Assembly (NCBI GenBank): GCA_947307015.1
Contig: CAMZHV010000001.1
Location: 12,846 to 76,845, forward strand
From: an uncultured Prevotellaceae bacterium
Lineage (GTDB): Bacteria; Bacteroidota; Bacteroidia; Bacteroidales; Bacteroidaceae
DNA: 64,000 nucleotides
Direction: 5' to 3'
Part shown: one piece after another, positions 21,158 through 48,228 of the stretch
How positions within the stretch are numbered: the stretch's first letter is position 1
How the letters are laid out: each line of letters starts with the position of its first letter
Notes under the pieces: generated by a model
Told to the model about the DNA's origin: nothing
Database searches by the model: none
The model's input: the letters and a program-made list of their open reading frames with translations, nothing else
Made by a program: the position numbers and the translations under genes

Positions 21158-21916
21158 TCAAGAGGCTTCTGCTTTCAGCAAGGCTTCAGCGATGATGAGG
21201 TCGAAAGGTGTGGTGATCTTGATATTCTCACGGTTGCCATCGACGAGGGTGACGGGATGCCCCAGGGCTTCGACGACAGAGGCATCGTCGGTAAAGGTGT
21301 CGCAGTAGGGCTGCTTGTAGGCTTGGAGAAGGAGGGAGTGCGTGAAGACCTGTGGGGTTTGGACAAGGCGCAGCTTCGAGCGGTCAATGGTAGCGGACAC
21401 CCCCTCCCCAGTGTGAGAGGGAAGAAGTTGGCGCACGGTCTCGACGACAGGGACGACGGGGACGACGGCGGCGTGCTCACGGGCAGCTTCGAAACAACGA
21501 CGGATAACATCAACGGAGACGAAGGGGCGCACGCCGTCGTGGACAGCAACCAAACTCCCCTCCCTCACGGGGGCGGGGGAGAGGCTTCTTAACCCGTTCT
21601 TTACACTATGAAACCGTGTTTCGCCGCCATCGACGATAGTATGTGGCAGGGTGAAAGCGTGCTGACGGCAGAGGTCGCGCCAAAAGTCCTGCTGGTCATG
21701 TGGCAGGACAAGCACGATGCGTATGCCAGAAATAGCACGCTCGAAAGCTTCAAGCGTGTGCATCAGCACGGGACGTCCCCCGATAGGAAGGAACTGCTTA
21801 GGCAGGTCGCTGCCCATCCGCAGTCCTTTGCCTCCGGCAACGATGATGACAGACTCTCCCCCCGCCCTCCCTATTAGGGAGGGAGTAGATTGTTTTGCTA
21901 TTGGATTATCTTCCAT
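21158..21916 (-). CDS. ispD: 2-C-methyl-D-erythritol 4-phosphate cytidylyltransferase
   Basis: 252 aa. [43 protein letters not shown] and LVQTPQVF motifs. The N-terminal 22 aa are encoded by repeat spacer + arm. Confidence 0.9.
21555..21585 (-). repeat. Short type-A variant in frame in ispD
   Basis: Reverse complement GCCTCTCCCCCGCCCCCGTGAGGGAGGGGAG. Translated as [10 protein letters not shown]. Confidence 0.6.
21852..21885 (+). repeat. Type-A module (left arm of the DJ-1|ispD doublet), translated in ispD
   Basis: GACTCTCCCCCCGCCCTCCCTATTAGGGAGGGAG. 33/34 identical to the reverse complement of 21951-21984. Confidence 0.9.
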
Positions 21917-21950
21917 AAAAAGATAATAATCAGTTCTTGTTAGGTAACCG

Positions 21951-21984
21951 CTCCCTCCCTAACAGGGAGGGCGGGGGGAGAGTC
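21951..21984 (-). repeat. Type-A module (right arm of the DJ-1|ispD doublet)
   Basis: CTCCCTCCCTAACAGGGAGGGCGGGGGGAGAGTC. Ends 5 nt from the DJ-1 stop codon. Confidence 0.9.
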
Positions 21985-21989
21985 TGTTT

Positions 21990-22532
21990 TTATCTATACA
22001 ACATCCCCTGTCTGAGCGCGTCGGCGGTGGCCTTGTCCTTCATCATCTCAACGATGGTATAGCCGAACTCGAAGACGGCGGCTGGACCTTTACCGGTGAT
22101 GTATTGTCCGTCAACTTCGACGAGGGCACCGGTGCAGGTGGCTCCCTTGAGCTCGTCCTCGAAGCCGGGATAGCAGGTGGCACGCTTGCCGTCGAGCAGA
22201 CCGATACGTCCAAGCACGAGGGGGGCGGCACAGATAGCTGCTATGGGACGTCCGATGTAGGCGTGGTCGCGGACACGTTCCACGAGGGCGTGACATTCGG
22301 CGAAGTTCTTTGCACCAGGCATACCGCCGGGCAGCACAAGCAGTTCAGCATCGAAGAAGTCGATATCCTTGAGCAGGGCATCACATTCGACGCGGATGCC
22401 ATGAGCACCCGTGATGATGCGCTCGTCGGTGATAGAAACGATCTGCAGGTCGAGGCCTGCGCGGCGGATGATGTCTGCAGTGCCGAGGGCTTCTATTTCC
22501 TCAGTGCCAGTGGTAAAGAATAGATAAATCAT
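21990..22532 (-). CDS. DJ-1/PfpI (ThiJ) family protein
   Basis: 180 aa. LVLPGGMPGA and AAICAAP (nucleophile-elbow Cys) motifs. Confidence 0.9.
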   Translation of the reverse strand: MIYLFFTTGTEEIEALGTADIIRRAGLDLQIVSITDERIITGAHGIRVECDALLKDIDFFDAELLVLPGGMPGAKNFAECHALVERVRDHAYIGRPIAAICAAPLVLGRIGLLDGKRATCYPGFEDELKGATCTGALVEVDGQYITGKGPAAVFEFGYTIVEMMKDKATADALRQGMLYR

Positions 22533-22543
22533 AGTAATTTGAC

Positions 22544-22572
22544 AATTATACGATTTTACGATTTAACAATTA
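22544..22572 (+). repeat. ACGATTT tandem motif (contains the 16-mer ACGATTTTACGATTTA) upstream of the DJ-1 gene
   Basis: The identical 16-mer recurs at 23387-23402 in the same orientation. Confidence 0.75.
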
Positions 22573-22586
22573 CGGGAATTGATAAG

Positions 22587-23348
22587 TTATTTCAAACAAG
22601 CAAGATATCTCTTGATAGTCTCTTCGAGGCCAAGGTAAAGGGCGTCGCAGATGAGGGCGTGACCGATGCTCACCTCGTCTGTCCAGGGTATCTGCTGGTG
22701 AAAGTAGGCGAGGTTGTTGAGGCTGAGGTCGTGGCCGGCGTTGAGGCCGAGGCCGAGGTCGCGGGCTGTTTGGGCGGCGCGGATAAAGGGGGCGATGGCG
22801 GCAGCACGGAGGCGATTACCCTCGGAAGAACCCTCGGAAACCGTGATGGCGGCCATTGCGGCGGCGTAGGGCTCGGTGTAGAGCTCCACGCGGTCAGCAC
22901 CGGCACGGGCAGCGTAGTCAACCATCGCTTCGTCGGCGTTGACGAAGATGCTCACGCGGATGCCAGCGGCCTTGAAGCGGGCTGTGACGTCGGTGAGGAA
23001 GTCGAGGTGTGTGCGGGTGTCCCAACCGTGGTTCGAGGTGATCTGGTCATGGCCGTCGGGCACGAGGGTGACCTGGGTGGGGCGGTTCTCAAGGACGAGG
23101 GCGATGAATTCCGAGATGGGATTGCCCTCGATGTTGAACTCCGTTGTCAGCAGCGGCTTCAAATCGCGCACGTCCTGATAGCGGATGTGGCGCTGGTCAG
23201 GACGGGGATGTACGGTGATACCCTGTGCGCCGAAGCGCTCGCAGTCCTGTGCCACACGCAGCACGTCGGGATTGTTACCGCCGCGTGCATTGCGGATGGT
23301 GGCCACTTTATTGATGTTTACGCTGAGTTTTGTAGGCATAACAGTCAA
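22587..23348 (-). CDS. pdxJ: Pyridoxine 5'-phosphate synthase
   Basis: 253 aa. [29 protein letters not shown] and NAGHDL motifs. The start could be the Met 3 codons downstream. Confidence 0.93.
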
Positions 23349-23368
23349 ATATAATCCTATTCTCGGCG

Positions 23369-23473: not shown

Positions 23474-23482
23474 AAAAAGACG

Positions 23483-23516: not shown

Positions 23517-23590
23517 GGGGATATAGCTCAGCTGGCTAGAGCGCGGCGTTCGCATCGCCGAGGTCGCGGGTTCGAATCCCGTTATCTCCA
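23517..23590 (+). tRNA. tRNA-Ala (anticodon CGC)
   Basis: Cloverleaf read by eye. Acceptor stem GGGGATA/TATCTCC with a G3:U70 pair. Anticodon stem CGGCG/CGCCG with loop TTCGCAT. T-arm GCGGGTTCGAATCCCGT. No encoded CCA. Confidence 0.9.
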
Positions 23591-24555: not shown

Positions 24556-26340
24556 ATGTGTTATTACCATAATAATATGACAGGAAAAGGAAACAATCAG
24601 CCAAAGGATACTGCTCCCCTCCCCGCAAAAGATAAGCGGGGGGGTGGGTCTGCTTATTTGACACGACAGCTGATAGCCTGGTTCTGGCATATTTTCATGC
24701 AGGTGAAGCTGCAGTCGTTCATCAATGCGATGAGCGGCATTATCCGTGTGGCGCTTGATTTTGCTTTCATCTGGGCCACGAAGGTGACCATCGATATAGC
24801 CACAGGCAATTTCTCGCCTTCATCCTTTATCCCCAAACCCTCCACCTTATTCAGTGCTGGCGTTCTGCTCATCAGCATCATGGTGCTGCAGATGGCTTTG
24901 GGCTATCTAAGGCGCTGGATTGCTGCACTTTTGGGCGTTGAGGCGCAGAACAGGATGCAACGCCACATCTTCGAGCATCTGTTGCGCAGCGAATGGCACG
25001 GTAAAGAGCGCCGTCACAGCGGCGATGTCCTCAACCGTTTGATCAGCGACAGCACCACGGTTGTCACCGTGGTCACGGATACGGTACCGCAGGCGTTGGC
25101 CGTGCTGGTGCGCCTCGTGTGTGCATTCTTTTTTCTTTACTCCATGGATGCCATGCTGGCGGTGGGCGTTATTGTCATCCTGCCGCTCTTCATCCTGCTC
25201 AGCCGCCTCTATGTCCATCGGATGCGTGCCATCACGCGTGAAGTGCGGAAGACCGACAGCCGCGTGCAGGCCATCTTGCAGGAGAGCGTGCAGCACCGCC
25301 TCGTACTGAAGACCTTGGAGCGTGTGCCGCTCCTTGTCCAAGCGCTGTCTGATTTGCAAGCCACACTACGCAGTCAAGTGCGCCACCGTACGCTCTTCTC
25401 CTCCACTTCCAACCTGGTGGTTAACATCGGTTTCGGTGCAGCCTATCTCTTCACCTTCCTCTGGAGTGTGAACCGTCTTTCTGATGGCACCATCACCTTT
25501 GGCATGATGACCGCCTTCATCCAGTTGTGTGGTCAGATACAAGGCCCCTTCCGCGAACTGACACGTTTCATCCCGGCCATCATCAGCAGCTTTACGTCAG
25601 CCGAACGTCTCATGGAGCTCGAAGAAACGCCCCTCGAGGAAGACGGTGAGCCTATTCGTTTCGAACGCGGTGCAGGCATACGTCTCACTGATGTCACTTT
25701 CGCCTATGACGACTACAGCCGTACCATCCTCAGCCATGCCACCTACGATTTTGCGCCCGGCTCCACAACAGCCGTCCTGGGCGAGACGGGGGCGGGCAAG
25801 ACAACACTGCTCAGGCTGGTGCTCGCCCTGCTAAAACCGCAACAGGGGACGGTGGAGATCTACGAACCTGCCACAGGGCGCGCCGTACAGGTCAGCGCCC
25901 GCACACGTTGCAACCTCGTCTATGTGCCACAAGGCAATTCACTCTTCAGTGGCACCTTGCGCTGGAACCTGCAGATGGGTAAGCCCGAGGCGACGGACGA
26001 AGAGCTGCATGAGGCGTTGCGCTTGGCCTGTGCCGATTTCGTGCAGACGTTGCCCGATGGCCTCGACACGCGCATCGGCGAGGGTGGCGCAGGTCTCTCT
26101 GAAGGACAGGCGCAGCGCATAGCCATCGCCCGTGCTCTCCTGCGTCAAGGTTCGGTGTTACTGCTCGACGAAGCCACCAGTGCCCTCGACCAGCAAACAG
26201 AGAAGCAACTGATAGAGAACCTTGTGGAACACCATAGCCACCTCTCCGTGAAGCCTACGCTCATTTTCATCACTCACCGCCCTGCCATCGTGAACTACTG
26301 CTCGCAGGTCATCACGTTTAAGAAATGTTCAGCTTCCTGA
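24556..26340 (+). CDS. ABC exporter, fused permease/ATPase (MsbA-like)
   Basis: 594 aa. Six-TM ABC_membrane region, Walker A GETGAGKTT, LSEGQAQRIAIARAL, Walker B LLLDEATSALD. The N-terminus contains a repeat arm, so the start is uncertain. Confidence 0.85.
   Translation: MCYYHNNMTGKGNNQPKDTAPLPAKDKRGGGSAYLTRQLIAWFWHIFMQVKLQSFINAMSGIIRVALDFAFIWATKVTIDIATGNFSPSSFIPKPSTLFSAGVLLISIMVLQMALGYLRRWIAALLGVEAQNRMQRHIFEHLLRSEWHGKERRHSGDVLNRLISDSTTVVTVVTDTVPQALAVLVRLVCAFFFLYSMDAMLAVGVIVILPLFILLSRLYVHRMRAITREVRKTDSRVQAILQESVQHRLVLKTLERVPLLVQALSDLQATLRSQVRHRTLFSSTSNLVVNIGFGAAYLFTFLWSVNRLSDGTITFGMMTAFIQLCGQIQGPFRELTRFIPAIISSFTSAERLMELEETPLEEDGEPIRFERGAGIRLTDVTFAYDDYSRTILSHATYDFAPGSTTAVLGETGAGKTTLLRLVLALLKPQQGTVEIYEPATGRAVQVSARTRCNLVYVPQGNSLFSGTLRWNLQMGKPEATDEELHEALRLACADFVQTLPDGLDTRIGEGGAGLSEGQAQRIAIARALLRQGSVLLLDEATSALDQQTEKQLIENLVEHHSHLSVKPTLIFITHRPAIVNYCSQVITFKKCSAS
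24614..24650 (-). repeat. C-tail module variant (right arm of the nadK|ABC doublet), in frame
   Basis: CTCCCCTCCCCGCAAAAGATAAGCGGGGGGGTGGGTC. Translated as APLPAKDKRGGGSA. Confidence 0.6.
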
Positions 26341-27309: not shown

Positions 27310-27342
27310 ATAACGACCTTTGAGAGGGGAAAAGGAGGTTAT
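27310..27342. terminator. Possible bidirectional hairpin between convergent genes
   Basis: ataacgaccttt / aaaggaggttat arms (10/12 complementary), 9-nt loop. Overlaps the thrC stop. Confidence 0.3.
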
Positions 27343-28799
27343 TGCTGGAGGAGGAAAGCTTTGAAGTCGGCAAAATCCTTGCTCATGGCGACCGACTTCT
27401 TCTCGCCGCGCATGAAAGCCTGCAGCTTTTCGGGGATGGGAAGATCGATGCCGAGGATGCGGTCTACGGTGTCCTTGAATTTGGCGGGATGAGCGGTCTC
27501 AAGGAAGACGCCGACTTCGCCGTCTTGCAGCTGCTCTTTCAAGGCGCGATAACCGCACGCGCCGTGAGGATCAAGGATATAACCCGTGCGAGCATAACAA
27601 TCACGCATTGTCTCGGCAATCTGGTCGTCGGTGTAGGTGGCGCCGGAGATAAGGGGCCTCTCCCCCAACCCCTCCCCCGAGAGGGAGGGGAGTGGCTGTG
27701 CATAGCCTCTTTTACTTAACACTTCCATGACATCCTCACGACTGTAGAGGTCGAGGATGCGGGCGAAATTTGAGGGATCACCGACATCCATTGCATTGGC
27801 AATGGTCTGTTTCGAGGCTTTCGGCGTATACACACCTGTCTGGAGGTAGTTGTAGAACACGTCGTTGGCGTTGTTCGCCGCAATGAAACGTTTCACGGGC
27901 AGCCCCATGACGTGGCCGAACAGTGCCGAACAGATATTGCCGAAATTGCCGGAGGGGACGCAGATGACACAATCGGCTGCCCCACCGCCAACCCCTCTTC
28001 TCGTCAGGGAGGGGATAAGTTGCGCGTAAGCATAGAAATAATAAAACGCCTGCGGCAGGAAGCGGGCCACGTTGATGCTGTTGGCCGAGGTGAGGCGCAT
28101 GTGGGTATTCAGCTCCTGATCCATAAACGCCGACTTCACCAGTGCTTGGCAGTCATCGAAGACGCCATCGACCTCAATGGCCGTGATGTTTTGGCCGAGC
28201 GTCGTGAACTGACACTCCTGAATGGGCGACACCTTACCCTTCGGATAGAGCACATAAACATGTATACCCTCCACGCCGAGGAAGCCGTTGGCCACAGCCG
28301 AACCAGTGTCGCCGGAAGTGGCTACGAGTACATTAACCATGGAAGCCCCCCCTACTGCCCCCGAGGGGGCTTCTATTGTTTTGCGATTAGAGGACTTTAC
28401 ATCCGTAGCCCCCTCGGGGGCTGAATGGGGGGCCAACATATACTGAAGCAGGCGTGCCATAAATCTCGCACCCACATCTTTAAAAGCCAGCGTGGGGCCG
28501 TGGAAGAGCTCGAGGGCATAGATATTGTCCTCGACTTTCACGACAGGACAGTCGAAGGAGAGGGTGTCATAGACGATACGACGGAGGGCATCGGCTTCGA
28601 CATCTTCGCCGAAGAAGGCATCAGCGACGCGATAGGCCACCTCCTGGAATGTGAGGCCTGCCATTTCGTCCCAGAACGATTCAGGCAGTTGCTTGATGAC
28701 TTCGGGCATATACAGGCCGCGATCTTCGGCAAGGCCGCGGACGACAGCATCACGCAAAGTAGCGCGGGCAGCGGTATGGTTGGTGGAGTAGTAGAGCAT
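27339..28799 (-). CDS. thrC: Threonine synthase
   Basis: Start moved to MLYYSTNH. FKDVGARFMARLL, ATSGDTGSAVANGF and VPSGNFGN motifs. Three in-frame repeat insertions. Confidence 0.93.
   Translation of the reverse strand: MLYYSTNHTAARATLRDAVVRGLAEDRGLYMPEVIKQLPESFWDEMAGLTFQEVAYRVADAFFGEDVEADALRRIVYDTLSFDCPVVKVEDNIYALELFHGPTLAFKDVGARFMARLLQYMLAPHSAPEGATDVKSSNRKTIEAPSGAVGGASMVNVLVATSGDTGSAVANGFLGVEGIHVYVLYPKGKVSPIQECQFTTLGQNITAIEVDGVFDDCQALVKSAFMDQELNTHMRLTSANSINVARFLPQAFYYFYAYAQLIPSLTRRGVGGGAADCVICVPSGNFGNICSALFGHVMGLPVKRFIAANNANDVFYNYLQTGVYTPKASKQTIANAMDVGDPSNFARILDLYSREDVMEVLSKRGYAQPLPSLSGEGLGERPLISGATYTDDQIAETMRDCYARTGYILDPHGACGYRALKEQLQDGEVGVFLETAHPAKFKDTVDRILGIDLPIPEKLQAFMRGEKKSVAMSKDFADFKAFLLQQ
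27656..27692 (+). repeat. C-tail + hairpin module variant in frame in thrC
   Basis: GCCTCTCCCCCAACCCCTCCCCCGAGAGGGAGGGGAG. Translated as PLPSLSGEGLGERP. Confidence 0.65.
27979..28015 (+). repeat. C-tail + hairpin module variant in frame in thrC
   Basis: GCCCCACCGCCAACCCCTCTTCTCGTCAGGGAGGGGA. Translated as PSLTRRGVGGGA. Confidence 0.6.
28345..28434. mobile_element. 90-nt type-B doublet (REPIN/MITE-like), in frame in thrC
   Basis: Two inverted type-B ends (28345-28373 and 28400-28434) separated by 26 nt. 30 codons (PHSAPEGATDVKSSNRKTIEAPSGAVGGA) inserted between LQYMLA and MVNVLVATSGDTG. Confidence 0.8.
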
Positions 28800-28811
28800 A
28801 CTATAAAAAAA

Positions 28812-28844
28812 CCACCCCAACCTTCCCTGTGAGGGAGGGGGTGG
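28812..28844 (+). repeat. Type-A variant (arm of the apgM-like|thrC doublet)
   Basis: CCACCCCAACCTTCCCTGTGAGGGAGGGGGTGG. Lies 12 nt upstream of the thrC ATG. Confidence 0.7.
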
Positions 28845-28861
28845 AATGATTTGTATAATGG

Positions 28862-30172
28862 TTATTGATTATCTAATGTATCTACTCCCTCCCTCACAGG
28901 GAGGGTAAGGGGTGGGTCTGTCATAAACAACTTAATGAATTCATCGCCTTCGATGAGACCATAGGCGCCTTCGCGGGCAGCATCCTCGTCGAAGGTCTGC
29001 ACACTATCTGGCTCTATGCCGGGGTAGTAGATGGCAAAGGGGATGGGCTCGGCGGTGTGAGTGCGTAGCTCGCAGGGCGTGGGATGGTCGGGTAAAAGAG
29101 CAATGGCGAGGTCATCCGTCATTTCGAACGCATGAAGGATAGGCTGAATGAGCCGATGGTCGAGGTCTTCGATGGTCTGGAGCTTGAGGGGGACTGAACC
29201 ATCGTGACCAGCCTCGTCGCTGGCTTCGACGTGGAGATAGACGAAGTCATCACCGCTGCGAAGGGCCTCGATGGCAGCCTGTGCCTTACCCTCGAAGTTA
29301 GTGTCATAGAGACCTGTAGCACCAGGGACGTTGATGACGCGCAACCCGGCATAATGTCCGATGCCGCGGATGAGGTCTACGGCCGTGATCACGGAGCCAC
29401 GACGAATCTGCGGGAAGCGTTCGGTGAGCGGCACCATCTGCGGACGATAGCCGCCGCCCCATGGCCAGATGCTCGAAGCCATATCTTTACCCTCGCGCGC
29501 GCGTTCTTTATTTAATTCATGCAAAGGCAGAAGTTCTTGGGAACGGCGAATGAGGTCGCATAGCAGGTCGGCGGTCTCAGCGGGGGACAGGACCTCTCTT
29601 TGCTTCCCCTCAAAGGGGAGGGTGGAATCTTCAGCGCAGGTATCTGCCGAGGGGACCTTGTCGCGCCATGTCTGAAGGGGCACATCGTGTGGCGGTGTAC
29701 ATTTAAGGTGCTTGTTGCCGCCTTTGATGACCAACAGGTGACGGTACTGCACGCCCGTATAGAAATGTACGCGGTCGTTGGCTAAGTGTTCGTTGAGGTA
29801 TCGGATGAGGACGTCGCCTTCCTCCGTTTCGAGGCGTCCGCAGGAGTGGTTCTTGATGATGTCACCCTCGATGCAAACGAGGTTACAGCGTAGGGCAAGG
29901 TCACCTTCTTCCAGTTCCACGCCTATGCTGGCGGCTTCCAGCGGTCCACGACCCTCGTAAACGACGTGTTGGTCGTAGCCCATGATGCTGCTGTTGGCCA
30001 CTTCACTACCCGGATGAAAACCATCGGGAATGGTCTTCAACAATCCGCAACGACCATTACGCGCCAACCAGTCCATGGCGGGCGTGTCGGCGTATTGAAG
30101 GAGTGTCTTGTCACCGAGTGAAGGCACGTGCCAGTCGGCCATGCCGTCGCCAAGGATGATTAGATGTTTCAT
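28862..30172 (-). CDS. Cofactor-independent phosphoglycerate mutase-like (apgM family) protein; probable non-canonical homoserine kinase of the thr operon
   Basis: 436 aa. MKHLIILGDGMAD... metalloenzyme-superfamily N-terminus. Sits between thrA and thrC. The C-terminus runs into a repeat arm. Confidence 0.8.
   Translation of the reverse strand: MKHLIILGDGMADWHVPSLGDKTLLQYADTPAMDWLARNGRCGLLKTIPDGFHPGSEVANSSIMGYDQHVVYEGRGPLEAASIGVELEEGDLALRCNLVCIEGDIIKNHSCGRLETEEGDVLIRYLNEHLANDRVHFYTGVQYRHLLVIKGGNKHLKCTPPHDVPLQTWRDKVPSADTCAEDSTLPFEGKQREVLSPAETADLLCDLIRRSQELLPLHELNKERAREGKDMASSIWPWGGGYRPQMVPLTERFPQIRRGSVITAVDLIRGIGHYAGLRVINVPGATGLYDTNFEGKAQAAIEALRSGDDFVYLHVEASDEAGHDGSVPLKLQTIEDLDHRLIQPILHAFEMTDDLAIALLPDHPTPCELRTHTAEPIPFAIYYPGIEPDSVQTFDEDAAREGAYGLIEGDEFIKLFMTDPPLTLPVREGVDTLDNQ
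28885..28918 (-). repeat. Type-A module (arm of the apgM-like|thrC doublet), forms the C-terminus of the apgM-like protein
   Basis: Reverse complement GACCCACCCCTTACCCTCCCTGTGAGGGAGGGAG. Translated as DPPLTLPVREGV. Confidence 0.85.
29592..29624 (+). repeat. Hairpin module variant in frame in the apgM-like gene
   Basis: CCTCTCTTTGCTTCCCCTCAAAGGGGAGGGTGG. Translated as STLPFEGKQRE. Confidence 0.5.
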
Positions 30173-32700: not shown

Positions 32701-34656
32701 TCAAGAGGCAGCGGCCTCCTGCGGCGTCGAAAGCGCGATTTCCTCTTCCTCCATCATCTGATGGAGCACGCGGCCCACGACGCTGTCGGGGATGTCTGGG
32801 AAATGGAAGTCGAGGAATGATGTCGGCTTCTGCTCGGCAACGAAGGCGAGGATGCGCTGGCGCACGAAAGCGTCGTCAATGCGCGGCAGCGGGCTCCGCT
32901 CGGTGCAGTTGTCGCAATGTCCGCAGTCTTGAGCATCCTTCTCGCCGAAGTAACGCAGGAGGTAGCGGCTGTGGCATTCCGAGGTCTCGAGGTAGCCGAT
33001 CATCGTCTGAATGCGTTGTTCGAGTTCGCGCTTGCGGTCGCGATAAACGGATGGCGGCAGCACGATGTCGTCACTCTCGACGCGCCGCTGTCTGAAGGTG
33101 ATATAGGGGATGAACTTACGCGGCACGAACTGCAGGATATGCCGGCGGCTGAGCTCCACGAGCTGCTCGCTGACCTCTGCCTCACCTACGCTTAGGGCGT
33201 GGGCTATCTCGCCTTCGTCGATGTAGGCATACTCGCTGAAGATGCCTGTACACGTCCGCAGCAGGTGCTGCAACACGCGCTCCATCAGGGGCGGAAGATG
33301 ATAGGTGTAGAGCTCTTCGCGGTGGCAGCTCATCATCACGCGGCTGTGGTTTTCCTCCGCATCGGCCCATTCGATATAGCCGGCTCGCGACAGCAGCTGC
33401 AAGGCGTTGTAAGCCCGCACGGGAAAATGGTGGAACGTGCGACAGAACTCCTCCAGATTGAACTCTCGCGTGATGCCAAAGCCGTCGCCCATGGCTAACT
33501 GCAGGAAATAGCAGGCATCCTCGTAGACCTTCCTGACGTAATCCTCTGGCGGGTAGGTGTCTTCGATGCGGCGGCGTAGCACAGCGATGGAGCGGCTGTC
33601 GTAGAGAAGCACGGCATGAGCCTGCTGGCCATCGCGGCCGGCACGCCCTGCCTCTTGGAAATACGCTTCGGGGGAGTCGGGGACGTCGGTGTGGACGATG
33701 AGCCGCACGTCGGCCTTGTCAATACCCATGCCAAAGGCGTTTGTGGCCACCATCACGCGGATCTCGCCGTGCTGCCACGCCGCCGCCCGCTCGTTCTTCT
33801 CGCGATTCGTCAGGGCGGCATGGTAGTGAGTTGCCGTGATGCCCTGCGACACGAGCCACGAGGCCAGTTCGCGCGTAGCCTGACGGCTGCGGGTATAGAC
33901 GATGGCAGAACCGGGCACGCGGATAAGCAATTCCTGCAGCTCCTGTTCACGCGACTGTCGGATGCGGCGGACGGAATAGATCAGGTTCTTGCGTTCGAAG
34001 CTCATCCGCTTGACATTAGGCTCACGGAAGCCTAATTGCCGTTGGATATCTTCGACGACGGGCGGTGTGGCGGTGGCCGTCAGGGCAAGCACTGGCGCGT
34101 CGGGCAGCAGCTTGCGGATTTGGGAAATCTCGGTGTAAGACGGGCGGAAGTCGTAACCCCATTGCGAGATGCAGTGGGCCTCGTCCACCGTGATGAAGCT
34201 TACCTGCATGTGTCTGAGCTTGGCCTGAAAAAGCTCCGAGGACAGGCGCTCGGGCGAGACATAGAGGAATTTGTAATTGCCAAAAATGCAGTTCTCCAAC
34301 GCCGTAATCACCTCGTCGCGCGTCATGCCCGTATAGACGGCAGTGGCCTTGATGCCTTTCTCGCGGAGGTGCATCACCTGATCCTTCATCAAGGAGATCA
34401 GCGGGCTGATGACCAGGCACAACCCCTCCTGCGCCAATGCCGGCACCTGAAAGGTGATGCTCTTGCCGCCGCCCGTAGGCATAAGCCCTAAGGTATCCCT
34501 TCCCGCCCCAATACTCTCAATGATGTCCTGCTGAATACCACGGAAGGAAGAGAAACCGAAATAATGGTGTAAGATAGAACAATAAACAGACTCTCCCCCC
34601 GCCCTCCCTATCAGGGAGGGAGCAGTCACATGCGCCAGTTGCTCCTTTCCGTTCAT
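32701..34656 (-). CDS. recQ: RecQ-family ATP-dependent DNA helicase
   Basis: 651 aa. FRGIQQDII (Q motif), MPTGGGKS, DEAHCISQWGYDFRP, ATNAFGMGIDK and QEAGRAGRDG motifs. The N-terminal 23 aa are encoded by spacer + repeat arm. Confidence 0.92.
   Translation of the reverse strand: MNGKEQLAHVTAPSLIGRAGGESVYCSILHHYFGFSSFRGIQQDIIESIGAGRDTLGLMPTGGGKSITFQVPALAQEGLCLVISPLISLMKDQVMHLREKGIKATAVYTGMTRDEVITALENCIFGNYKFLYVSPERLSSELFQAKLRHMQVSFITVDEAHCISQWGYDFRPSYTEISQIRKLLPDAPVLALTATATPPVVEDIQRQLGFREPNVKRMSFERKNLIYSVRRIRQSREQELQELLIRVPGSAIVYTRSRQATRELASWLVSQGITATHYHAALTNREKNERAAAWQHGEIRVMVATNAFGMGIDKADVRLIVHTDVPDSPEAYFQEAGRAGRDGQQAHAVLLYDSRSIAVLRRRIEDTYPPEDYVRKVYEDACYFLQLAMGDGFGITREFNLEEFCRTFHHFPVRAYNALQLLSRAGYIEWADAEENHSRVMMSCHREELYTYHLPPLMERVLQHLLRTCTGIFSEYAYIDEGEIAHALSVGEAEVSEQLVELSRRHILQFVPRKFIPYITFRQRRVESDDIVLPPSVYRDRKRELEQRIQTMIGYLETSECHSRYLLRYFGEKDAQDCGHCDNCTERSPLPRIDDAFVRQRILAFVAEQKPTSFLDFHFPDIPDSVVGRVLHQMMEEEEIALSTPQEAAAS
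34589..34629 (+). repeat. Type-A module (arm of the recJ|recQ doublet), translated in recQ
   Basis: GACTCTCCCCCCGCCCTCCCTATCAGGGAGGGAGCAGTCAC. 39/41 complementary to 34689-34729. Confidence 0.9.
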
Positions 34657-34688
34657 TAACTATCAAAAAATGAAAACAAATCTTGAAG

Positions 34689-34729
34689 GTGACTGCTCCC
34701 TCCCTTTTAGGGAGGGCGGGGGGAGAGTC
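34689..34729 (-). repeat. Type-A module (arm of the recJ|recQ doublet)
   Basis: GTGACTGCTCCCTCCCTTTTAGGGAGGGCGGGGGGAGAGTC. Ends 6 nt from the recJ stop. Confidence 0.9.
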
Positions 34730-34735
34730 TTCTCC

Positions 34736-36457
34736 TTATTCCTCGCTCGGCCTGATATCCTCAATCTGCAACTGCACCTCGCCCCGCTTATGCGTGTTCT
34801 CCTCCACCGTGTAGCAGATGTCGAACGCCCGGCGACTCTTGATGAAGCGAGCCTGCGAGCTCTGGCCGAAAGCGATGCCGCTGACGACGTTGTGGCTCTT
34901 GTTGTCCACCAGCTCCAGCTTGATGTGTTCCTGGTGATGACCTACCACCTTGCTGGTGCCGTAGTCGTACACATGCTCCGTGCAGAACAGCGGCTTCTGA
35001 TTGTCCGGGCCGAAAGGTTGGAACTTGCGCAGGTCGTTGAAGAAGCGATGGCTGATGTCCTTGAAGTCCAACATTCCGTCGATATTCAGGTCGGGCTGGA
35101 TCTGCGATTCGAGGATGTTCTCATTGACATATTCCTCGAAGCGGCGCTTGAATTCGGGCACGTTCTCCACCTTCATCGATAGACCGGCAGCGTAGGTGTG
35201 ACCGCCGAAGTTCTCTAAGAGGTCGCGGCAGCTGTCGATGGCGCGGTAGACATCGAAGCCTCCGACGGAGCGTGCCGAGCCCGTGGCCATATCGTCGGTA
35301 CGGGTGAGTACGACAGCCGGACGGCAGTACACCTCTGTCAGTCGCGAGGCCACGATGCCGATGACGCCTTTGTGCCACTCCTCGTTGTAGATGACGATGG
35401 CGCGCTGCTCGTGGTTGTGGTCGAGCTTCTCCACGATGTCGTTGGCTTCCTGCGTCATCTCCTTGTCGAGGTCTTTGCGCTGGTCGTTATAGGCGTTAAT
35501 CTGCAGGGCCATGCGATGTGCACGGTACGGGTCACGCTCCACAAGCAGGGCCACGGCTTCGCTGCCCTTCTGCATACGTCCCGAGGCGTTGATGCGCGGG
35601 CCGATCTTAAAAATGATGTCGCTCATCGTGATCTCGCGATCCAGCAGGCCGCAGATCTCGATGATAGCCTTCAGCCCCACGCTCGCCTTCGAGTTGATCT
35701 GCTTCAGGCCGTGATAGGCCAGCACGCGGTTCTCGCCTAAGATAGGTACGATGTCCGAGGCGATGCTCACGGCGCACAAGTCCAGCAGCGGCACCAACTG
35801 CGAGAAGGGGATACCGTTGTCGATGGCAAAAGCCTGCATCAGCTTGAAGCCCACACCGCAGCCCGACAGGTGTTCGTAGGGGTAAGTGGCATCTACGCGC
35901 TTGGCGTTGAGGATAGCCACGGCGGGCGGCAGCTCATCATCCGGCACGTGGTGGTCGCAGATGATGAAGTCGATGCCTAACTCCTTGGCGTAGGCAATCT
36001 CCTCGTTGGCCTTAATGCCACAGTCCAGGACGATGATAAGTCCCACGCCCGTCTCATGAGCGAAGTCCACGCCCTGTTTGCTCACGCCATACCCCTCCTC
36101 GTAGCGGTCGGGGATGTAAAAATCGATGTTGGTTGTGAACTGTTGCAGGAAACGGTAGACCAAAGCTACCGCCGTGCAACCATCCACGTCGTAGTCTCCA
36201 TACACTAAGATACGTTCCTTGCGTCCGAGAGCCAGGTTCAGCCGATCGACAGCAACCCGCATATCACGGAAAAGAAAAGGATCAAGCAGTTCGTTGAGCT
36301 GCGGCCGGAAGAAACGTCGCGCCTCCAACGAATTGGTGATGCCGCGATCCAGTAGTAGCAGGCCGAGAGCGGGGTGAATACCCACGTCGGCGGCCAAGGC
36401 CTCAGCTGCTTCCTGTCGTTCGGGTGTAGGAGGTTCGTAATTCCATTTGTAGTTCAT
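34736..36457 (-). CDS. recJ: Single-stranded-DNA-specific exonuclease RecJ
   Basis: 573 aa. DHH motifs (VYGDYDVDG, DCG, ICDHH) and DHHA1 (GGHTYAAG). Confidence 0.93.
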   Translation of the reverse strand: MNYKWNYEPPTPERQEAAEALAADVGIHPALGLLLLDRGITNSLEARRFFRPQLNELLDPFLFRDMRVAVDRLNLALGRKERILVYGDYDVDGCTAVALVYRFLQQFTTNIDFYIPDRYEEGYGVSKQGVDFAHETGVGLIIVLDCGIKANEEIAYAKELGIDFIICDHHVPDDELPPAVAILNAKRVDATYPYEHLSGCGVGFKLMQAFAIDNGIPFSQLVPLLDLCAVSIASDIVPILGENRVLAYHGLKQINSKASVGLKAIIEICGLLDREITMSDIIFKIGPRINASGRMQKGSEAVALLVERDPYRAHRMALQINAYNDQRKDLDKEMTQEANDIVEKLDHNHEQRAIVIYNEEWHKGVIGIVASRLTEVYCRPAVVLTRTDDMATGSARSVGGFDVYRAIDSCRDLLENFGGHTYAAGLSMKVENVPEFKRRFEEYVNENILESQIQPDLNIDGMLDFKDISHRFFNDLRKFQPFGPDNQKPLFCTEHVYDYGTSKVVGHHQEHIKLELVDNKSHNVVSGIAFGQSSQARFIKSRRAFDICYTVEENTHKRGEVQLQIEDIRPSEE

Positions 36458-45340: not shown

Positions 45341-46900
45341 ATGAACCTTTTATCTATCGACCCTGCAGCCATCGACTGGGCGCGAGCGCAGTTTGCCCTC
45401 ACGGCCATCTATCACTGGCTCTTTGTCCCATTAACTTTGGGAGTTGGCCTCATCATGGCCATCATTGAAACAAAGTACTACCGCACAGGTGACGCGTTCT
45501 GGCGTCGTGCGGCACAATTCTGGCAGCGCCTCTTTGGCATCAACTTCGCCATGGGCGTAGCCACGGGCATCATCCTCGAGTTCGAGTTTGGCACTAACTG
45601 GTCCAACTACTCCTGGTTTGTCGGCGACATCTTCGGTGCGCCTTTAGCCATCGAGGGTATCGTGGCGTTCTTCATGGAATCGACCTTCGTGGCCGTTATG
45701 TATTTCGGTTGGGAGAAAGTGTCGCGAGGCTTCCACTTGGCTTCGACTTGGCTCACCTGGCTCGGCGCCACCATCTCGGCGTGGTGGATCCTCGTCGCCA
45801 ACTCATGGATGCAATATCCCGTGGGCTGCGAATTCAACCCCGACACCATGCGCAATGAGATGACTTCGTTCCTCGATGTGGCTCTCTCGCCCTTTGCCAT
45901 CGACAAGTTCTGCCACACCGTCATCTCATCTTGGATTGTCGGCGCCGTCTTCGTAGTGGCTGTTTCGGCATGGTACCTCCTCAAGAAACGCGAAGCCGAG
46001 CGCGCGCTGGCACTCAAGAGCTTACGCATCGGAGCCATCGTGGGACTCATCGCTGCTGTGCTGGCTGGTGCTACGGGCCACAAGTCGGCACAGACAGTCG
46101 CCGCCGTGCAACCCATGAAGCTCGCCGCCATGGAGGCGCTCTACGACGGCGGCAACGCTCAGGGACTCAAAATTATAGAAGGCATCGAGGTGCCCTACGC
46201 CCTCTCCTTCATGGCTACCAACGACTTCAACGGCTTCGTGCCCGGTATTAATGATATATTAAAAGGTTACACGCGCGAGGACGGCACAGTAGAACCGTCA
46301 GCTCAGGAGAAGCGCGAGCGTGGGCAGATGGCCATCACAGCCCTCGAGAACTACCGCCGCCTCAAGGCTGACGAGAAAACCTTTGCCGACCAGGATCCCG
46401 ACGGCTACATCACCGCTGCCAAGGAAAAACAGCTGGCTATACTCAAAGAGAATATGCCCTACTTCGGCTACGGGTATATCAAGGACGAGGCCGAATTGGT
46501 GCCTCCCGTGGCAGTCAATTTCTGGGCTTTCCGCGTGATGGTTGGCTTCGGCGGTCTCTTCATCCTCTTCTTCGCCTACATTCTTTTCCTCAACTGGCGC
46601 AAAAAAGATATTTCCTCGATGAAATGGCTACTTTGGCTCAGCATCATCCTCGTGCCCTGCGCATACATCTGCTCTGAAAGCGGCTGGCTCGTGGCAGAGT
46701 TTGGACGCCAGCCCTGGACGATACAAGATATGCTACCCGTCGCTGCCTCCGTCTCGGACATCGGTTCTGGCGCCGTCGCCACGACCTTCTGGCTTTTCCT
46801 CGCGCTCTTCACCACGATGCTTGCCGTGGAAATCAATATCATGTTGAAACAGATTAAAAAGGGAGATCCCCTCCTCACTCCCCCTCAAGGGGGAGAGTAG
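45341..46900 (+). CDS. cydA: Cytochrome bd ubiquinol oxidase subunit I
   Basis: 519 aa. ARAQFALTAIYHWLFVPLTLG and GRQPWTIQDMLP motifs. The last 11 codons are a repeat arm. Confidence 0.95.
   Translation: MNLLSIDPAAIDWARAQFALTAIYHWLFVPLTLGVGLIMAIIETKYYRTGDAFWRRAAQFWQRLFGINFAMGVATGIILEFEFGTNWSNYSWFVGDIFGAPLAIEGIVAFFMESTFVAVMYFGWEKVSRGFHLASTWLTWLGATISAWWILVANSWMQYPVGCEFNPDTMRNEMTSFLDVALSPFAIDKFCHTVISSWIVGAVFVVAVSAWYLLKKREAERALALKSLRIGAIVGLIAAVLAGATGHKSAQTVAAVQPMKLAAMEALYDGGNAQGLKIIEGIEVPYALSFMATNDFNGFVPGINDILKGYTREDGTVEPSAQEKRERGQMAITALENYRRLKADEKTFADQDPDGYITAAKEKQLAILKENMPYFGYGYIKDEAELVPPVAVNFWAFRVMVGFGGLFILFFAYILFLNWRKKDISSMKWLLWLSIILVPCAYICSESGWLVAEFGRQPWTIQDMLPVAASVSDIGSGAVATTFWLFLALFTTMLAVEINIMLKQIKKGDPLLTPPQGGE
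46865..46897 (+). repeat. C-tail module variant (left arm of the cydA|cydB doublet), forms the cydA C-terminus
   Basis: GATCCCCTCCTCACTCCCCCTCAAGGGGGAGAG. Translated as DPLLTPPQGGE, then stop. Confidence 0.65.
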
Positions 46901-46965
46901 TCACCTCTAAGAATCGATTCAAACTACTCATCTCTCATCTTTAATCTCTCATCTTTTCTCATATT

Positions 46966-48228
46966 ATGATTACTTTTAGTTCTCTCATAAGTCTATTACA
47001 AACCGCCCTTCCCATTGCGGGGGAGCAGGAAGGGTGGCTGTCTTATTCCTTTCTCCAACACTATTGGTGCTTCGTTGTCGCACTGCTCGGCGCCATCCTC
47101 GTGTTCCTGCTCTTCGTCCAGGGTGCCAACTCTGTAGCCGGCAGCCTTGGATACACAGAGGAGGGCCGTCGCCTCGTCTATAACTCCACGGGCCGCAAGT
47201 GGGAGTTCACCTTCACCACGCTCGTCACCTTTGGCGGTGCTTTCTTTGCATCATATCCCCTGTTCTACAGTACTTCATTCGGCAGTGCTTATTGGCTGTG
47301 GATGCTCATCTTGTTCACTTTCGTGGTTCAGGCGGTGAGCTACGAGTTCCAGAACAAACTTGGCAACTTCTTCGGCCCTAAACCCTTCCAGTTCTGCCTT
47401 ACCCTCAACGGCATCCTCGGCCCGCTACTCCTCGGCGGCGCCGTTGCCACTTTCTTCGAAGGTAGTAATTTTATTGTAGAAAAAGGAAACCTCATCACTG
47501 GGGCTGGGGGTGGGTCTCTCGTTATCTCCCACTGGGCCAACGCTTCTCACGGTCTTGACGCCCTACTCAACCCCTGGGTGCTTGTTTTCGGCTTTGCTGT
47601 CGTCTTCTTGGCTCGCACGTTAGGCATCCTCTACGTCATGAACAATGTCGATGACGAGGACATCCGCAGTCGTGGCAGTGTGCGTCTTATCGGCGCCGCC
47701 GTGCCCTTCGTCATCCTCTTCGTGGCCTACCTCGTACACTTGCTCCTTAAGGACGGCTATGCCTACGACCCCACCACCGGTGTTATCTTCATGGAGCCCT
47801 ATAAGTACCTGCACAACCTGCTCGACATGTGGTACCTCCTTATTATATTATTAACAGGTGTAGTCCTCGTGCTCTACGGCATCGCCATCGAAATCTTCGG
47901 TCGGTCAGATAAATTGTCAAATCGTAAATGGTTAAATAGTCAAATCAACAAGGGTATCTGGCCTGCTGGTATCGGTACCGTGCTTACCGTGCTCGCCCTG
48001 CTGCTTTGCTCCGCTTGGAACAACACCGCCTACTACCCCTCTACCGCTGACCTGCAGTCGTCGCTCACCATGCAAAACTCCTGCAGCAGCGAATTCACCC
48101 TACGCACCATGTTCTACGTCTCTCTCCTCGTCCCCTTCGTTCTGGCTTACATCATCTACTGCTGGCGAGCCATTGATGCTAAAAAGATCACCAAGGAGGA
48201 GATCATGGAAGGAGAGCATACGTATTGA
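46966..48228 (+). CDS. cydB: Cytochrome bd ubiquinol oxidase subunit II
   Basis: 420 aa. FLQHYWCFVVALLGAILVFLLFVQG is a typical CydB N-terminus. It is preceded by 24 codons from spacer + repeat arm that supply the only usable ATG. Confidence 0.9.
   Translation: MITFSSLISLLQTALPIAGEQEGWLSYSFLQHYWCFVVALLGAILVFLLFVQGANSVAGSLGYTEEGRRLVYNSTGRKWEFTFTTLVTFGGAFFASYPLFYSTSFGSAYWLWMLILFTFVVQAVSYEFQNKLGNFFGPKPFQFCLTLNGILGPLLLGGAVATFFEGSNFIVEKGNLITGAGGGSLVISHWANASHGLDALLNPWVLVFGFAVVFLARTLGILYVMNNVDDEDIRSRGSVRLIGAAVPFVILFVAYLVHLLLKDGYAYDPTTGVIFMEPYKYLHNLLDMWYLLIILLTGVVLVLYGIAIEIFGRSDKLSNRKWLNSQINKGIWPAGIGTVLTVLALLLCSAWNNTAYYPSTADLQSSLTMQNSCSSEFTLRTMFYVSLLVPFVLAYIIYCWRAIDAKKITKEEIMEGEHTY
47003..47037 (-). 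repeat. C-tail module variant (right arm of the cydA|cydB doublet), translated in cydB
   Basis: CCGCCCTTCCCATTGCGGGGGAGCAGGAAGGGTGG. Translated as ALPIAGEQEGW. Confidence 0.6.
47907..47945. repeat. AT-rich tandem NNNAAAT repeats in frame in cydB
   Basis: gtcaaat cgtaaat ggttaaat agtcaaat. Translated as DKLSNRKWLNSQI. Resembles the AAATCGTAAA motif upstream of pdxJ and the DJ-1 gene. Confidence 0.45.

Follow-up and report, generated by a model that had tools for sequence, protein, structure and literature searches.

Several described systems come close to the repeat reported here. The REP, BIME and REPIN sequences of Proteobacteria go together with RAYT, a Y1 HUH transposase (Bertels and Rainey 2011; Nunvar 2010; PMC3733652), and Bacteroidetes-specific RAYT subclasses exist (PMC6006769). 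For the Rickettsia palindromic elements (RPEs; Ogata et al. 2000) no autonomous partner is known, and they have not been reported to carry a start codon of their own. Free-standing homing endonuclease genes are known from the seg/mob "intronless homing" of phage T4 and from "fractured genes" (PMC2677866); the Vsr-like EDxHD homing family includes I-Bth0305I (PMC3239194), and Vsr, DUF559 and 3R3P have been grouped together (PMC3424549). Finally, there are MITEs such as the Correia elements of Neisseria.

We analysed a long inverted repeat at the recJ|recQ junction of a 64-kb stretch of DNA from an uncultured Prevotellaceae bacterium, the whole of which (64,000 nucleotides) we call the window. 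We consider this repeat, with a probability of roughly two in three (about 0.68), to be a non-autonomous copy, shortened by internal deletion, of a small mobile cassette of uncultured rumen and gut Bacteroidales. Its geometry is as given in an earlier note on this DNA: the arms, at 34589-34629 and 34689-34729, are identical at 39 of 41 positions with both mismatches in 3-nt hairpin loops (ATC versus AAA), the 59-nt spacer (34630-34688) contains the recQ ATG, and the repeat begins 6 nt past the recJ stop. The whole repeat (141 bases) and both genes are on the minus strand, where the parts of the locus, in the direction of reading, are as follows.

34736..36457, minus strand: recJ, 573 aa, with Pfam domains DHH, DHHA1 and RecJ_OB; stop codon TAA at 34738-34736
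34730..34735, minus strand: outer flank of 6 nt between the recJ stop and the arm, purine-rich (GGAGAA)
34689..34729, minus strand: upstream (recJ-proximal) arm, GACTCTCCCCCCGCCCTCCCTaaaAGGGAGGGAGCAGTCAC, untranslated here; covariance-model match of 63 bits
34657..34688, minus strand: 5' part of the spacer, CTTCAAGATTTGTTTTCATTTTTTGATAGTTA, A+U-rich and, by alignment, homologous to the DUF559 5'UTR of complete elements
34654..34656, minus strand: recQ start codon ATG, aligned with the DUF559 start codon of the element in locus L164
34630..34653, minus strand: leader of eight codons, NGKEQLAH, which joins the recQ ATG to the downstream arm
34588..34629, minus strand: downstream (recQ-proximal) arm, 14 codons in frame with RecQ motif 0; covariance-model match of 68 bits
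32701..34656, minus strand: recQ ORF, 651 aa, with Pfam domains DEAD, Helicase_C and RecQ_Zn_bind; conserved core from VYCSILHHYFGF (34587 downward)

Between 34400 and 34900 a repeat finder returned a single inverted pair, with arms of 53 nt (34577-34629 and 34689-34741; 87%) around the 41-nt core, and a pattern search recovered both 41-nt cores at two mismatches, where shuffles predict 0 matches. Folded as RNA, the region gives -106.3 kcal/mol (z = -10.9), with the arms predicted to be about 93% paired and the recQ start region about 50% unpaired; the 25 nt ahead of the recQ ATG are 84% A+U.

Comparison of alleles establishes that the recJ|recQ repeat is an insertion, and that recJ|recQ alleles are polymorphic for it. 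Armless alleles, in which recJ and recQ overlap at ATGA without any spacer, are found in the nearest species (L081), in the same-species L091 (about 98.5% identity apart from the junction), in L089 and in L090. The earlier proposal that arm, spacer with ATG, and arm form one unit is borne out by these relatives, which lack the spacer and the N-terminal extension along with the arms. Six other alleles (L084, L086, L088, L092, L093, and L116) also carry the doublet, with decayed arms in L084 and L086, and on the RecQ tree its presence and absence are patchy, with decayed remnants such as MQSEEQSAGAESMY and MSESVY. Doublets are kept at this junction across lineages with 65-77% RecQ identity; the two arms of one recJ|recQ doublet are 78-95% alike, more so than arms of different alleles, and the right boundary of the doublet is constant among lineages while the left boundary varies. 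In same-species pairs, SNPs cluster beside the recJ|recQ indel. No target-site duplication, of TA or otherwise, was found at the element ends on comparing empty with filled alleles and on inspecting 180 flanks, and no complete DUF559 copy stands at recJ|recQ in the roughly 10 alleles read. In a RecQ search of genome contigs the matches were distant relatives, at 60% identity or less, and all were without copies of the repeat.

The palindromic arm family is abundant in uncultured rumen and gut Bacteroidales, and an exact arm 22-mer is present in at least 120 metagenome stretches. Within the window the arm core has 8 matches (0 expected), and a covariance model gives 10 matches of at least 27 bits. 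An inverted partner lies within 260 nt for 127 of 211 right arms. The flanks of 180 arms are purine-rich, with position -1 invariably A or G; AAGGAGAA is found ahead of the arm in the complete element of L164, as in the recJ-side flank, and the 6-nt flank GGAGAA probably belongs to the inserted DNA. The recQ-type arm ends in ..AGGGAGGGAG(C/T)(A/G)G.., its tag lying on the 3' side of the stem and reading GTAG in just 2 of the 8 window copies; a second arm family (CGTAGCCCCCTCGGGGGC..) has the canonical 5'-GTAG. Single arms also exist, as at 2036-2084 in the window and at L084:20320, where a 42-nt in-frame insert in SDH_alpha is absent in L089. Three other doublets in the window lie at gene starts or junctions:

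21846..21990, minus strand: sister doublet at the ispD start; ATG 21916-21914 in the spacer, and the arm peptide followed by VIIVAGG
28802..28924, minus strand: sister doublet between apgM and thrC; the C-terminus of apgM runs into the arm, and the thrC ATG (28799-28797) lies beyond the arm
46859..47044, plus strand: diverged doublet at the cydA/cydB junction; cydB ATG 46966 in a 97-nt spacer

The apgM/thrC gap measures 2 nt in the relative L081, and the TAG stop of cydA is provided by the arm tag. The ispD doublet does share the recQ-type arm core, as had been claimed (repeats I2, 91%, and I10, 92%), but the accompanying claim that the recQ and ispD spacers are unrelated in sequence does not hold: both open with ..T(C/T)ACCT(T/AA)CAAGA.., and in both, 66-69 nt separate the ATG from the outer end of the downstream arm. 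The layout described for these two loci, namely an upstream stop, a few nucleotides, an arm, a spacer with ATG, a second arm and then the conserved protein core, proves to be general. In a set of 24 long metagenome doublets, 18 of 20 have the upstream stop at a distance of 0-9 nt from the arm, and 18 of 24 have an in-frame ATG within the spacer. We also considered the CAAGAA box as a directional functional motif, but dropped it since its polarity has two simpler explanations; a reversed box would put TGA in the translated frame just ahead of the arm, and the box is part of the DUF559 5'UTR.

The arm is shown by its codon phase to be frame-locked, and appears to be translated, because one reading frame is shared by 43 of the 50 arms sampled ahead of a gene on the same strand (47 distinct loci). 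In Fmt, FucI, ArgB, and RfbB the Pfam domain starts at profile position 1-4 right after a cassette of 21-24 aa, and a leader, ATGAATACA.., is common to three different host genes. In-frame arm copies that leave the host ORF intact are present in RecQ, IspD, ThrC, KorA, KorB, and SDH_alpha. The recQ-type element occurs not only at recQ and ispD, but also at fmt, argB, fucI, valS, rimO and other genes, and compact doublets (about 114-117 nt) lie in frame within many unrelated genes, in both orientations. These compact in-gene doublets look like products of transposition, and site-specific homing does not explain them.

DUF559 ORFs (tblastn and HMM) are present in 10 of 120 repeat-selected loci and in none of L001-L093. 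Nine of these 10 metagenome ORFs have an arm on either side, at a minimum of six different host junctions, in the order host stop, arm, DUF559, ATG leader overlapping the DUF559 stop (ATGA), arm, host gene; from these loci the complete cassette is shown to have an arm-DUF559-leader-arm architecture. All 11 complete DUF559 genes found have a repeat arm within about 150 nt. The ORFs match Pfam PF04480 at E = 1e-31 to 1e-34, and their PDB matches include 3HRL (1e-16) and the homing endonuclease I-Bth0305I (3R3P, 0.012). An E-x-D-G-x-Y-H motif is invariant in 9 aligned arm-flanked copies, and is present in the window and L129 copies too. Substitution ratios (dN/dS 0.03-0.14 with dS saturated, the arms meanwhile being nearly identical) indicate that DUF559 is under purifying selection. 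One locus (L152) holds a truncated DUF559 intermediate. DUF559 genes invading pre-existing doublets would yield an identical flanking pattern. The window itself has one such gene:

13802..14170, plus strand: DUF559 ORF between korA and korB (element 13802..14222), followed by an ATG leader and then a family-2 arm

The family-2 arm (14193-14222) is translated into the KorB N-terminus, and a korA|korB DUF559 element with both arms is found in L214. This DUF559 gene, the only one in the window, is paired with an arm of the second family instead of the recQ type. A sample selected by protein instead of by repeat gave a matching layout with family-2 arms at korA|korB, the junction at which this DUF559 lineage always lies. 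The two arm families correspond to two DUF559 lineages.

At their 5' ends the doublet spacers match the DUF559 5'UTR, with the ACCTTTCAAGA box in common. Aligned with L164 up to the DUF559 ATG, the recQ spacer has 28 of 35 positions identical, and 1 of 1000 shuffles scores as well; with flank and arm included, the alignment, again ending at the DUF559 ATG, has 77 identities among 88 aligned positions. These alignments establish homology between the 5' part of the recQ spacer and the DUF559 5'UTR, and since the match runs up to and includes the start codon, the doublet is most likely a deletion derivative, in which DUF559 would have been deleted rather than invading later.

The complete cassette starts after the upstream host stop with 0-9 nt, a REP-like arm and a short A+U-rich 5'UTR, continues with a DUF559 gene of about 121 aa for a Vsr-like putative endonuclease of the PD-(D/E)XK superfamily, and closes with an ATG leader overlapping the DUF559 stop, an inverted fixed-frame arm and then codon 2-5 of the downstream host gene. 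In this layout both host ORFs stay intact. At recJ|recQ the ancestral state would have been a 4-nt ATGA overlap, and the insertion would have supplied recJ with a TAA stop and pushed aside the native recQ start; once the endonuclease ORF was lost, the DUF559 translation-initiation region and ATG would have come to serve as the recQ start. No start codon lies between the arm and RecQ motif 0, and the next in-frame Met is within the Walker A motif; judged from its reading frame, RecQ is without any other usable start. The takeover of the displaced native start would therefore leave RecQ with an N-terminal extension of 23 aa, comprising 9 leader residues (M + NGKEQLAH, with Q replacing H in the same-species strain P0121) and 14 arm-encoded residues. 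In the mRNA, pairing of the arms would place the A+U-rich start region in a loop, and recQ translation would be uncoupled from that of recJ. DUF559 may drive the spread of the cassette, whether through homing into empty sites, accompanied by co-conversion, or through an action on the arms.

More tentatively, and with somewhat less than even confidence, we propose that the arms and DUF559 together constitute an undescribed class of bacterial mobile element, with a putative Vsr-like endonuclease in the place that RAYT holds in a REPtron. Such an element would land at tight gene junctions and keep host ORFs whole, providing the upstream gene with a stop, linking its own stop to an ATG leader and continuing through the arm into the downstream gene in a harmless frame of Pro/Ser/Gly. 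Its endonuclease-less doublets would have spread in rumen and gut Bacteroidales to dozens of housekeeping genes, at their starts as well as in their interiors, giving start codons and N-terminal tags to RecQ, IspD, Fmt, ArgB, ValS, and FucI.

The arms have REP hallmarks, being GC-rich imperfect palindromes in head-to-head doublets just past upstream stops, with a second family carrying 5'-GTAG, and these fit the description of REPs by Di Nocera et al. 2013 (PMC3733652). The recQ repeat might then be an ordinary REP/REPIN doublet moved by a RAYT encoded elsewhere, in which case the DUF559 genes would be secondary passengers homing into spacers, and the recQ spacer would never have held an endonuclease gene. 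We judge this unlikely, even though Bacteroidetes-specific RAYT subclasses exist, the compact in-gene doublets look transposed, and spacer invasion leaves split 5' and 3' flanks just as deletion does. A regex for the HUH and Y1 motifs matched no ORF of the 64-kb window, nor any in about 1.1 Mb of related contigs that comprise L081-L093 and 0.82 Mb of repeat-bearing sequence; the DNA screened represents partial genomes. Secondary passengers would also fit poorly with the nearness of an arm to all 11 complete DUF559 genes found, with the constant arrangement of the 9 metagenome copies between arms, in which DUF559 stop and leader overlap at ATGA, with arm families and DUF559 lineages that pair two by two, with the alignment of the recQ ATG to the DUF559 ATG, or with the truncated DUF559 of L152, which represents decay in place.

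It is improbable that the repeat is instead a selected cis-regulatory RNA device, a role hinted at in the earlier note, whose 41-bp stem would uncouple recQ from recJ through an RNase III cut or a stalled ribosome, with the start in the loop, and so tune RecJ and RecQ levels. The very stable predicted hairpin (-106 kcal/mol, z = -10.9) would suit such a device, as would its paired arms against a half-unpaired, A+U-rich start region, and the persistence of doublets at recJ|recQ in lineages of 65-77% RecQ identity, with arms co-similar within a doublet. Work by Liang, Rudd and Deutscher in 2015 is said to have found that E. coli REPs less than 15 nt from a stop codon reduce expression of the upstream gene. 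Nevertheless, the doublet is present or absent within one species and is missing from the nearest species, the arms have decayed in L084 and L086, and the element is shared with fmt, argB, fucI, ispD, valS, rimO and others. No Rfam family matches: scanning the locus with gathering thresholds, and then permissively, yields nothing beyond chance miRNA-like matches to the long hairpin. No intrinsic terminator follows the long stem on the coding strand, the sole minus-strand match being a 5-bp stem inside the upstream arm. Because regulatory side effects would fit a mobile cassette too, the RNA device is more an addition than an alternative to it; copies at dozens of unrelated genes, and polymorphism within species, fit a mobile element better.

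Separate insertion of two single palindromes, on either side of an older intergenic region in which recQ already had its start, is very doubtful: single arms do exist (2036-2084; L084:20320), and the left boundary of the doublet varies by lineage with the right constant, but every armless allele is without any intergenic region, and the spacer has element-specific sequence common to other loci and to complete cassettes. We give just as little credence to an inverton, in which recombination at the 41-bp arms would flip the spacer and toggle the recQ start, since, for all the resemblance of inverted repeats around a short start-codon segment to Bacteroidales invertons, and although in the flipped spacer only one ATG runs on into the arm, in a frame that is not that of recQ, the spacer is sense-oriented in 8 of 8 assembled alleles (window, P0121, L084, L086, L088, L092, L093, and L116), the arms come from a dispersed family that includes single copies, and no recombinase gene was noticed among the neighbouring ORFs, which were viewed unsystematically. 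A promoter-cassette idea was dropped because the spacers show no enrichment of the Bacteroidetes -7 box TAnnTTTG (0 observed versus 0.66 expected in the oriented set); a sigma-70 promoter scan of the locus returned nothing relevant.

If the repeat is indeed a deleted mobile cassette, then a housekeeping helicase of a gut or rumen bacterium begins translation from a start codon that a selfish endonuclease gene, now decayed, left behind, a clear instance of gene starts being rewritten by a mobile element. For REP-like palindromes RAYT would no longer be the only kind of protein partner, and DUF559, a large family, would receive its first proposed biological role, one that is open to testing. Annotation of Prevotella-like MAGs constantly meets these inserts, in the form of N-terminal extensions, fused or truncated gene calls, and contig breaks at DUF559, and recognition of the element would improve it. 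Peptides from the fixed-frame arm can be searched for in rumen metaproteomes, so that the translation claim is testable now.

The recJ|recQ repeat and its relatives share features with each of the systems named at the outset. Like the Correia elements, they are 100-150 bp units with inverted-repeat ends and, as we propose, a longer coding ancestor, which lie at gene junctions, can be co-transcribed to form RNA hairpins, and can change or fuse with neighbouring ORFs. Unlike MITEs, they have no target-site duplication and their arms are themselves hairpins, while the presumed autonomous partner (9 longer loci, one element truncated) encodes DUF559 and no recognised transposase.

As with free-standing homing endonuclease genes, a small ORF lies between conserved host coding sequences, and its nuclease fold is Vsr-related. 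A lineage tied to a single host junction (korA|korB), empty and occupied alleles within a species, SNPs beside the insert and degenerate copies, the last being expected from an invasion-decay cycle, may also recall such genes, but the filled recQ alleles are without the endonuclease and related arms occur at many sites. The palindromic arms are conserved, however, and occur also in hundreds of endonuclease-less copies at unrelated sites; the setting is a bacterial chromosome rather than a phage, with neither intron nor intein, and the element is translationally fused to the downstream host gene.

RPEs provide the precedent for in-frame palindromes in housekeeping genes, N-termini included, that are tolerated as peptide and are present or absent between close relatives. 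Their host phylum and consensus are different, so that homology in sequence is not expected, and the subfamily described here, unlike RPEs as reported, brings an ATG and leader that replace the native initiator region.

With REPs and REPINs the repeats have in common that they are many, short, GC-rich and imperfectly palindromic, form head-to-head inverted doublets able to make long hairpins, lie within a few nucleotides of the upstream gene's stop (where the arm tag may give the TAG stop, as in cydA), have some copies within ORFs, DNA-repair genes included (PMC3733652), and are conserved in their arms far above neutral sequence. They differ in that the recQ-type arm is without the 5'-GTAG tag, that a large share of copies appear to be translated in one fixed frame, that many lie in frame within ORFs or at their starts and the location is not predominantly extragenic, that the gene between the arms encodes a DUF559 putative endonuclease of PD-(D/E)XK type and not a Y1 HUH transposase, and that the host gene uses a start codon carried in the doublet spacer.

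The inverted repeat that the earlier note had described between recJ and recQ is real and lies on the minus strand, as both repeat search and pattern search confirm, and it is the only inverted pair returned by the repeat search between 34400 and 34900 (53 nt, 87%). Its arms match at 39 of 41 positions, with both differing positions in the 3-nt loops, and shuffled sequences yielded zero such matches; the 59-nt spacer, the 6 nt from the recJ stop codon (TAA) to the arm, and the location of the recQ ATG inside the spacer, where the ORF begins at 34656-34654, also agree with that description.

recJ: 34736..36457, minus strand, Pfam-confirmed
recQ: 32701..34656, minus strand, Pfam-confirmed
recJ|recQ arm cores: 34589-34629 and 34689-34729, minus strand, 41-nt core of the inverted pair

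As RNA, the region is predicted to form a hairpin of -106.3 kcal/mol (z = -10.9), and an Rfam search of the repeat returned no fitting family.

Judged by sequence comparison, this doublet (arm, spacer, and arm) is an insertion that is polymorphic between close relatives. The nearest RecQ homologues (80-88% identity) are without the N-terminal extension and start MTPYL(S/T)IL; L081, the nearest homologue's locus, has a 4-nt recJ/recQ overlap (GAGGAATGACCCC) with neither arms nor spacer, and an apgM-thrC gap of just 2 nt. L091, from the same species as the window (∼98.5% identity outside the junction), has a recJ/recQ overlap too (GAGGAATGATTTCC, MISILHQYFGF); it shares all 42 nt upstream of the junction with the window, departs from it over the first ∼7 recQ codons, and is near-identical again beyond them. 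Two further same-species pairs differ by a doublet, L084 with and L089 without (98.4% identity), and L088 with and L090 without (97.8%); in both, SNPs are bunched within ∼100 nt of the indel and further repeat indels lie close by. Relatives that lack the arms and keep the spacer, a pattern that would have spoken for independent arm insertions, are absent from the loci compared; since arm-less relatives do not retain the spacer, arm, spacer, and arm form a single unit, as the earlier note had proposed. At precisely recJ|recQ, lineages that are more distant (65-77% identity in RecQ) also bear a doublet, with a constant right boundary (..GTCT|GTTTAT) and varying left boundaries and spacers. Across the RecQ tree doublet presence is very patchy, and some RecQ N-termini resemble decayed remnants (MQSEEQSAGAESMY, MSASEDSVY, MSESVY). 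Elsewhere, L084 has a 42-nt single arm (14 codons; L084:20320-20361) in frame in its serine dehydratase (SDH_alpha) that is absent from the 98.4% identical L089, as is an unrelated 131-nt inverted-repeat element at L084:526-656 (…GTTTAAAGTTTAACG… / …CCTTCAACCATCAACC…).

The window has 8 copies of the arm core CCCTCCCTnnnAGGGAGGG against 0 expected, and a covariance model trained on the window's arm copies finds 10 copies there at a cut-off of at least 27 bits. The features located with this model include the following.

21846-21990: doublet at ispD
28802-28924: doublet at apgM/thrC
45178-45336: doublet just upstream of the cydA ATG (45341)
46859-47044: diverged doublet at the cydA/cydB junction
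2036-2084: single arm, in frame in a 1434-aa ORF
24605-24656: single arm, in frame at the N-terminus of ORF 24556..26340

At the cydA/cydB doublet, the arm tag supplies the cydA TAG stop, and the cydB ATG (46966) lies within the 97-nt spacer. Single or decayed arm copies are also in frame in ispD (21549-21591) and apgM (29584-29631). The window holds a second palindrome family (CGTAGCCCCCTCGGGGGC..GGGGGGCC), and many palindrome copies lie in frame within housekeeping ORFs (thrC, ispD, korA, korB, and apgM), where they encode Pro/Ser/Gly/Ala-rich peptides. In thrC (27339..28799, minus strand), a family-2 doublet (28345-28434, ∼90 nt) and a further palindrome (27650-27697) are in frame and make the threonine synthase ∼50 aa longer than the L081 counterpart (435 aa). 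Other window repeats include a 33-nt near-perfect palindrome (48787-48854; 94%, 2-nt loop) among ORF ends at ∼48803-48876, possibly a bidirectional terminator; inverted arrays of the heptamer GGACAAT/ATTGTCC (54216-54312 and 23443-23475); and short ACGATTT(T) repeats (22540-22571 and 23377-23408) at both ends of ORF 22539..23354, with a tRNA gene at 23517-23590.

Doublets fall into two classes. Compact doublets (∼114-117 nt) have related spacers, lie in frame within genes in both orientations, and translate as an arm peptide, ∼14 aa, and a second arm peptide; long doublets have A+T-rich spacers. The geometry noted earlier at recQ (stop, few nt, arm, ATG-bearing spacer, arm) proves general among 24 unique long doublets, with orientation set by the inner box: a same-strand stop precedes the arm by 0-9 nt in 18/20, and the spacer has an in-frame ATG in 18/24, compared to 1/24 and 3/24 in the other frames and 6/20 in reverse orientation, with 13 in-frame ATGs situated 60-75 nt from the arm end. 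In predicted RNA folds the arms are ∼92% paired and the start region, 70-88% A+U, is ∼50% unpaired. No target-site duplication was found at the element ends, where the outer flanks are just purine-rich.

The arm appears to be translated, with the spacer ATG as the recQ start. Only the codons GTT TAT TGT separate the arm from helicase motif 0, and the next in-frame Met falls within the Walker A motif. Metagenome contigs were scanned with a 22-nt arm tail (at least 120 stretches), and a codon-usage model trained on window genes located the gene downstream of each arm. For arms that run directly into a same-strand gene (47 distinct loci), the phase, which depends on gene calls by this simple model, is one frame for 43/50, a second for 4/50, and the third for 3/50; an untranslated leader element should show no phase preference, which argues for translation. 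In Fmt, FucI, ArgB, and RfbB the Pfam domain starts, at profile position 1-4, right after a 21-24-residue cassette, which would thus replace the native initiator region. One and the same leader (ATGAATACAnCnrGTCA..) stands before the arm in three unlike hosts, namely fmt, fucI, and an MFS transporter gene, so the ATG belongs to the element.

A motif search of the window and ∼1.1 Mb of related contigs found no RAYT. The window does encode a DUF559 endonuclease, whose start and stop overlap those of korA/korB (TAATG).

13802-14170, plus strand: DUF559 ORF, 122 aa, wedged between korA and korB (PF04480, E = 9e-31)
14193-14222, plus strand: family-2 palindrome 3' of the DUF559 ORF, translated into the KorB N-terminus
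13526-13573, plus strand: in-frame family-2 palindrome within the C-terminal region of KorA

Its PDB matches are 3HRL (1e-16) and, weakly, 3R3P (0.012), which is I-Bth0305I, a homing endonuclease of Vsr-like type; Vsr, DUF559, and 3R3P are grouped together by Steczkiewicz et al. (PMC3424549). By tblastn and HMM, DUF559 homologues occur in 10 of 120 repeat-selected loci among the matches listed, and in none of the loci L001-L093. Nine of these 10 loci have the ORF enclosed by two arms, and the order of parts is constant: the host stop and an arm come first, then ..ACCTTTCAAGAAT.. and ATG-DUF559 (∼121 aa), a leader, an arm in the translated frame, and the host gene, with the DUF559 stop overlapping the short leader's ATG (ATGA or TAATG). 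Hosts include fmt (three genomes), argB, a sugar transporter, and an acyl-ACP thioesterase-like gene. Among the DUF559 proteins identity is 69-91% and synonymous sites are saturated (dN/dS 0.03-0.14), yet the adjoining arms stay almost identical. A second sample, picked by protein rather than repeat (at least 749 homologues of the window's DUF559), agrees on this architecture: L214 has the full layout with family-2 arms, and in all contexts read two homologues (66-68% identity) occupy korA|korB. Many homologues are on very short contigs (0.5-1.5 kb), which is what an element that disrupts metagenome assembly would produce, and the source names of some are wrong (guanylate kinase, methionine synthase).

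The analysis covered 64 kb of the source genome, which belongs to an uncultured Bacteroidales (Bacteroidaceae/Prevotella-like) known from gut or rumen metagenomes. On this sequence evidence, the most plausible reading of the recJ|recQ doublet is a DUF559 cassette derivative that no longer has its endonuclease. In their 5' parts, doublet spacers match the DUF559 5'UTR. At recQ, left flank, arm, and spacer together agree at 77/88 positions with the element of metagenome locus L164, up to the DUF559 start codon (spacer alone 28/35, a score equaled in 1/1000 shuffles). In L152, the arms upstream of ribF enclose a DUF559 truncated to its N-terminal 49 aa, from its sequence a decay intermediate. The former DUF559 start codon would now serve as the recQ ATG, and the change was probably the deletion of DUF559, less likely its later entry into a doublet already in place. 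DUF559 may mobilize the element; spread could be homing-like, given lineages tied to one locus, alleles with and without the insert, and SNPs bunched next to the indel, or transposition-like, given compact in-frame copies at many sites. For expression, ATGA coupling of recJ and recQ would be lost, a strong hairpin would form 6 nt past the recJ stop codon, and recQ initiation would occur from an A+U-rich loop. Such a start would suit Shine-Dalgarno-independent initiation in Bacteroidetes.

In Proteobacteria and Rickettsia, REPs near stops, head-to-head dimers, tag-supplied TAG stops, and REPs within ORFs, including DNA-repair genes and N-termini, are documented (PMC3733652), and RAYT subclasses specific to Bacteroidetes exist (PMC6006769). 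Phage and ocean metagenomes are known to contain Vsr-like homing endonucleases and free-standing copies placed between the halves of genes (PMC3239194, PMC2677866). We found no paper tying DUF559 to repeats or mobility, and no description of these elements in Bacteroidales; given these known REP, RPE, and homing features without a DUF559-repeat link, the element appears to be a variant not described before. The recQ-type element behaves like a REPIN/MITE and like an RPE, but differs from them in being partnered by a DUF559 endonuclease and in donating start codons.
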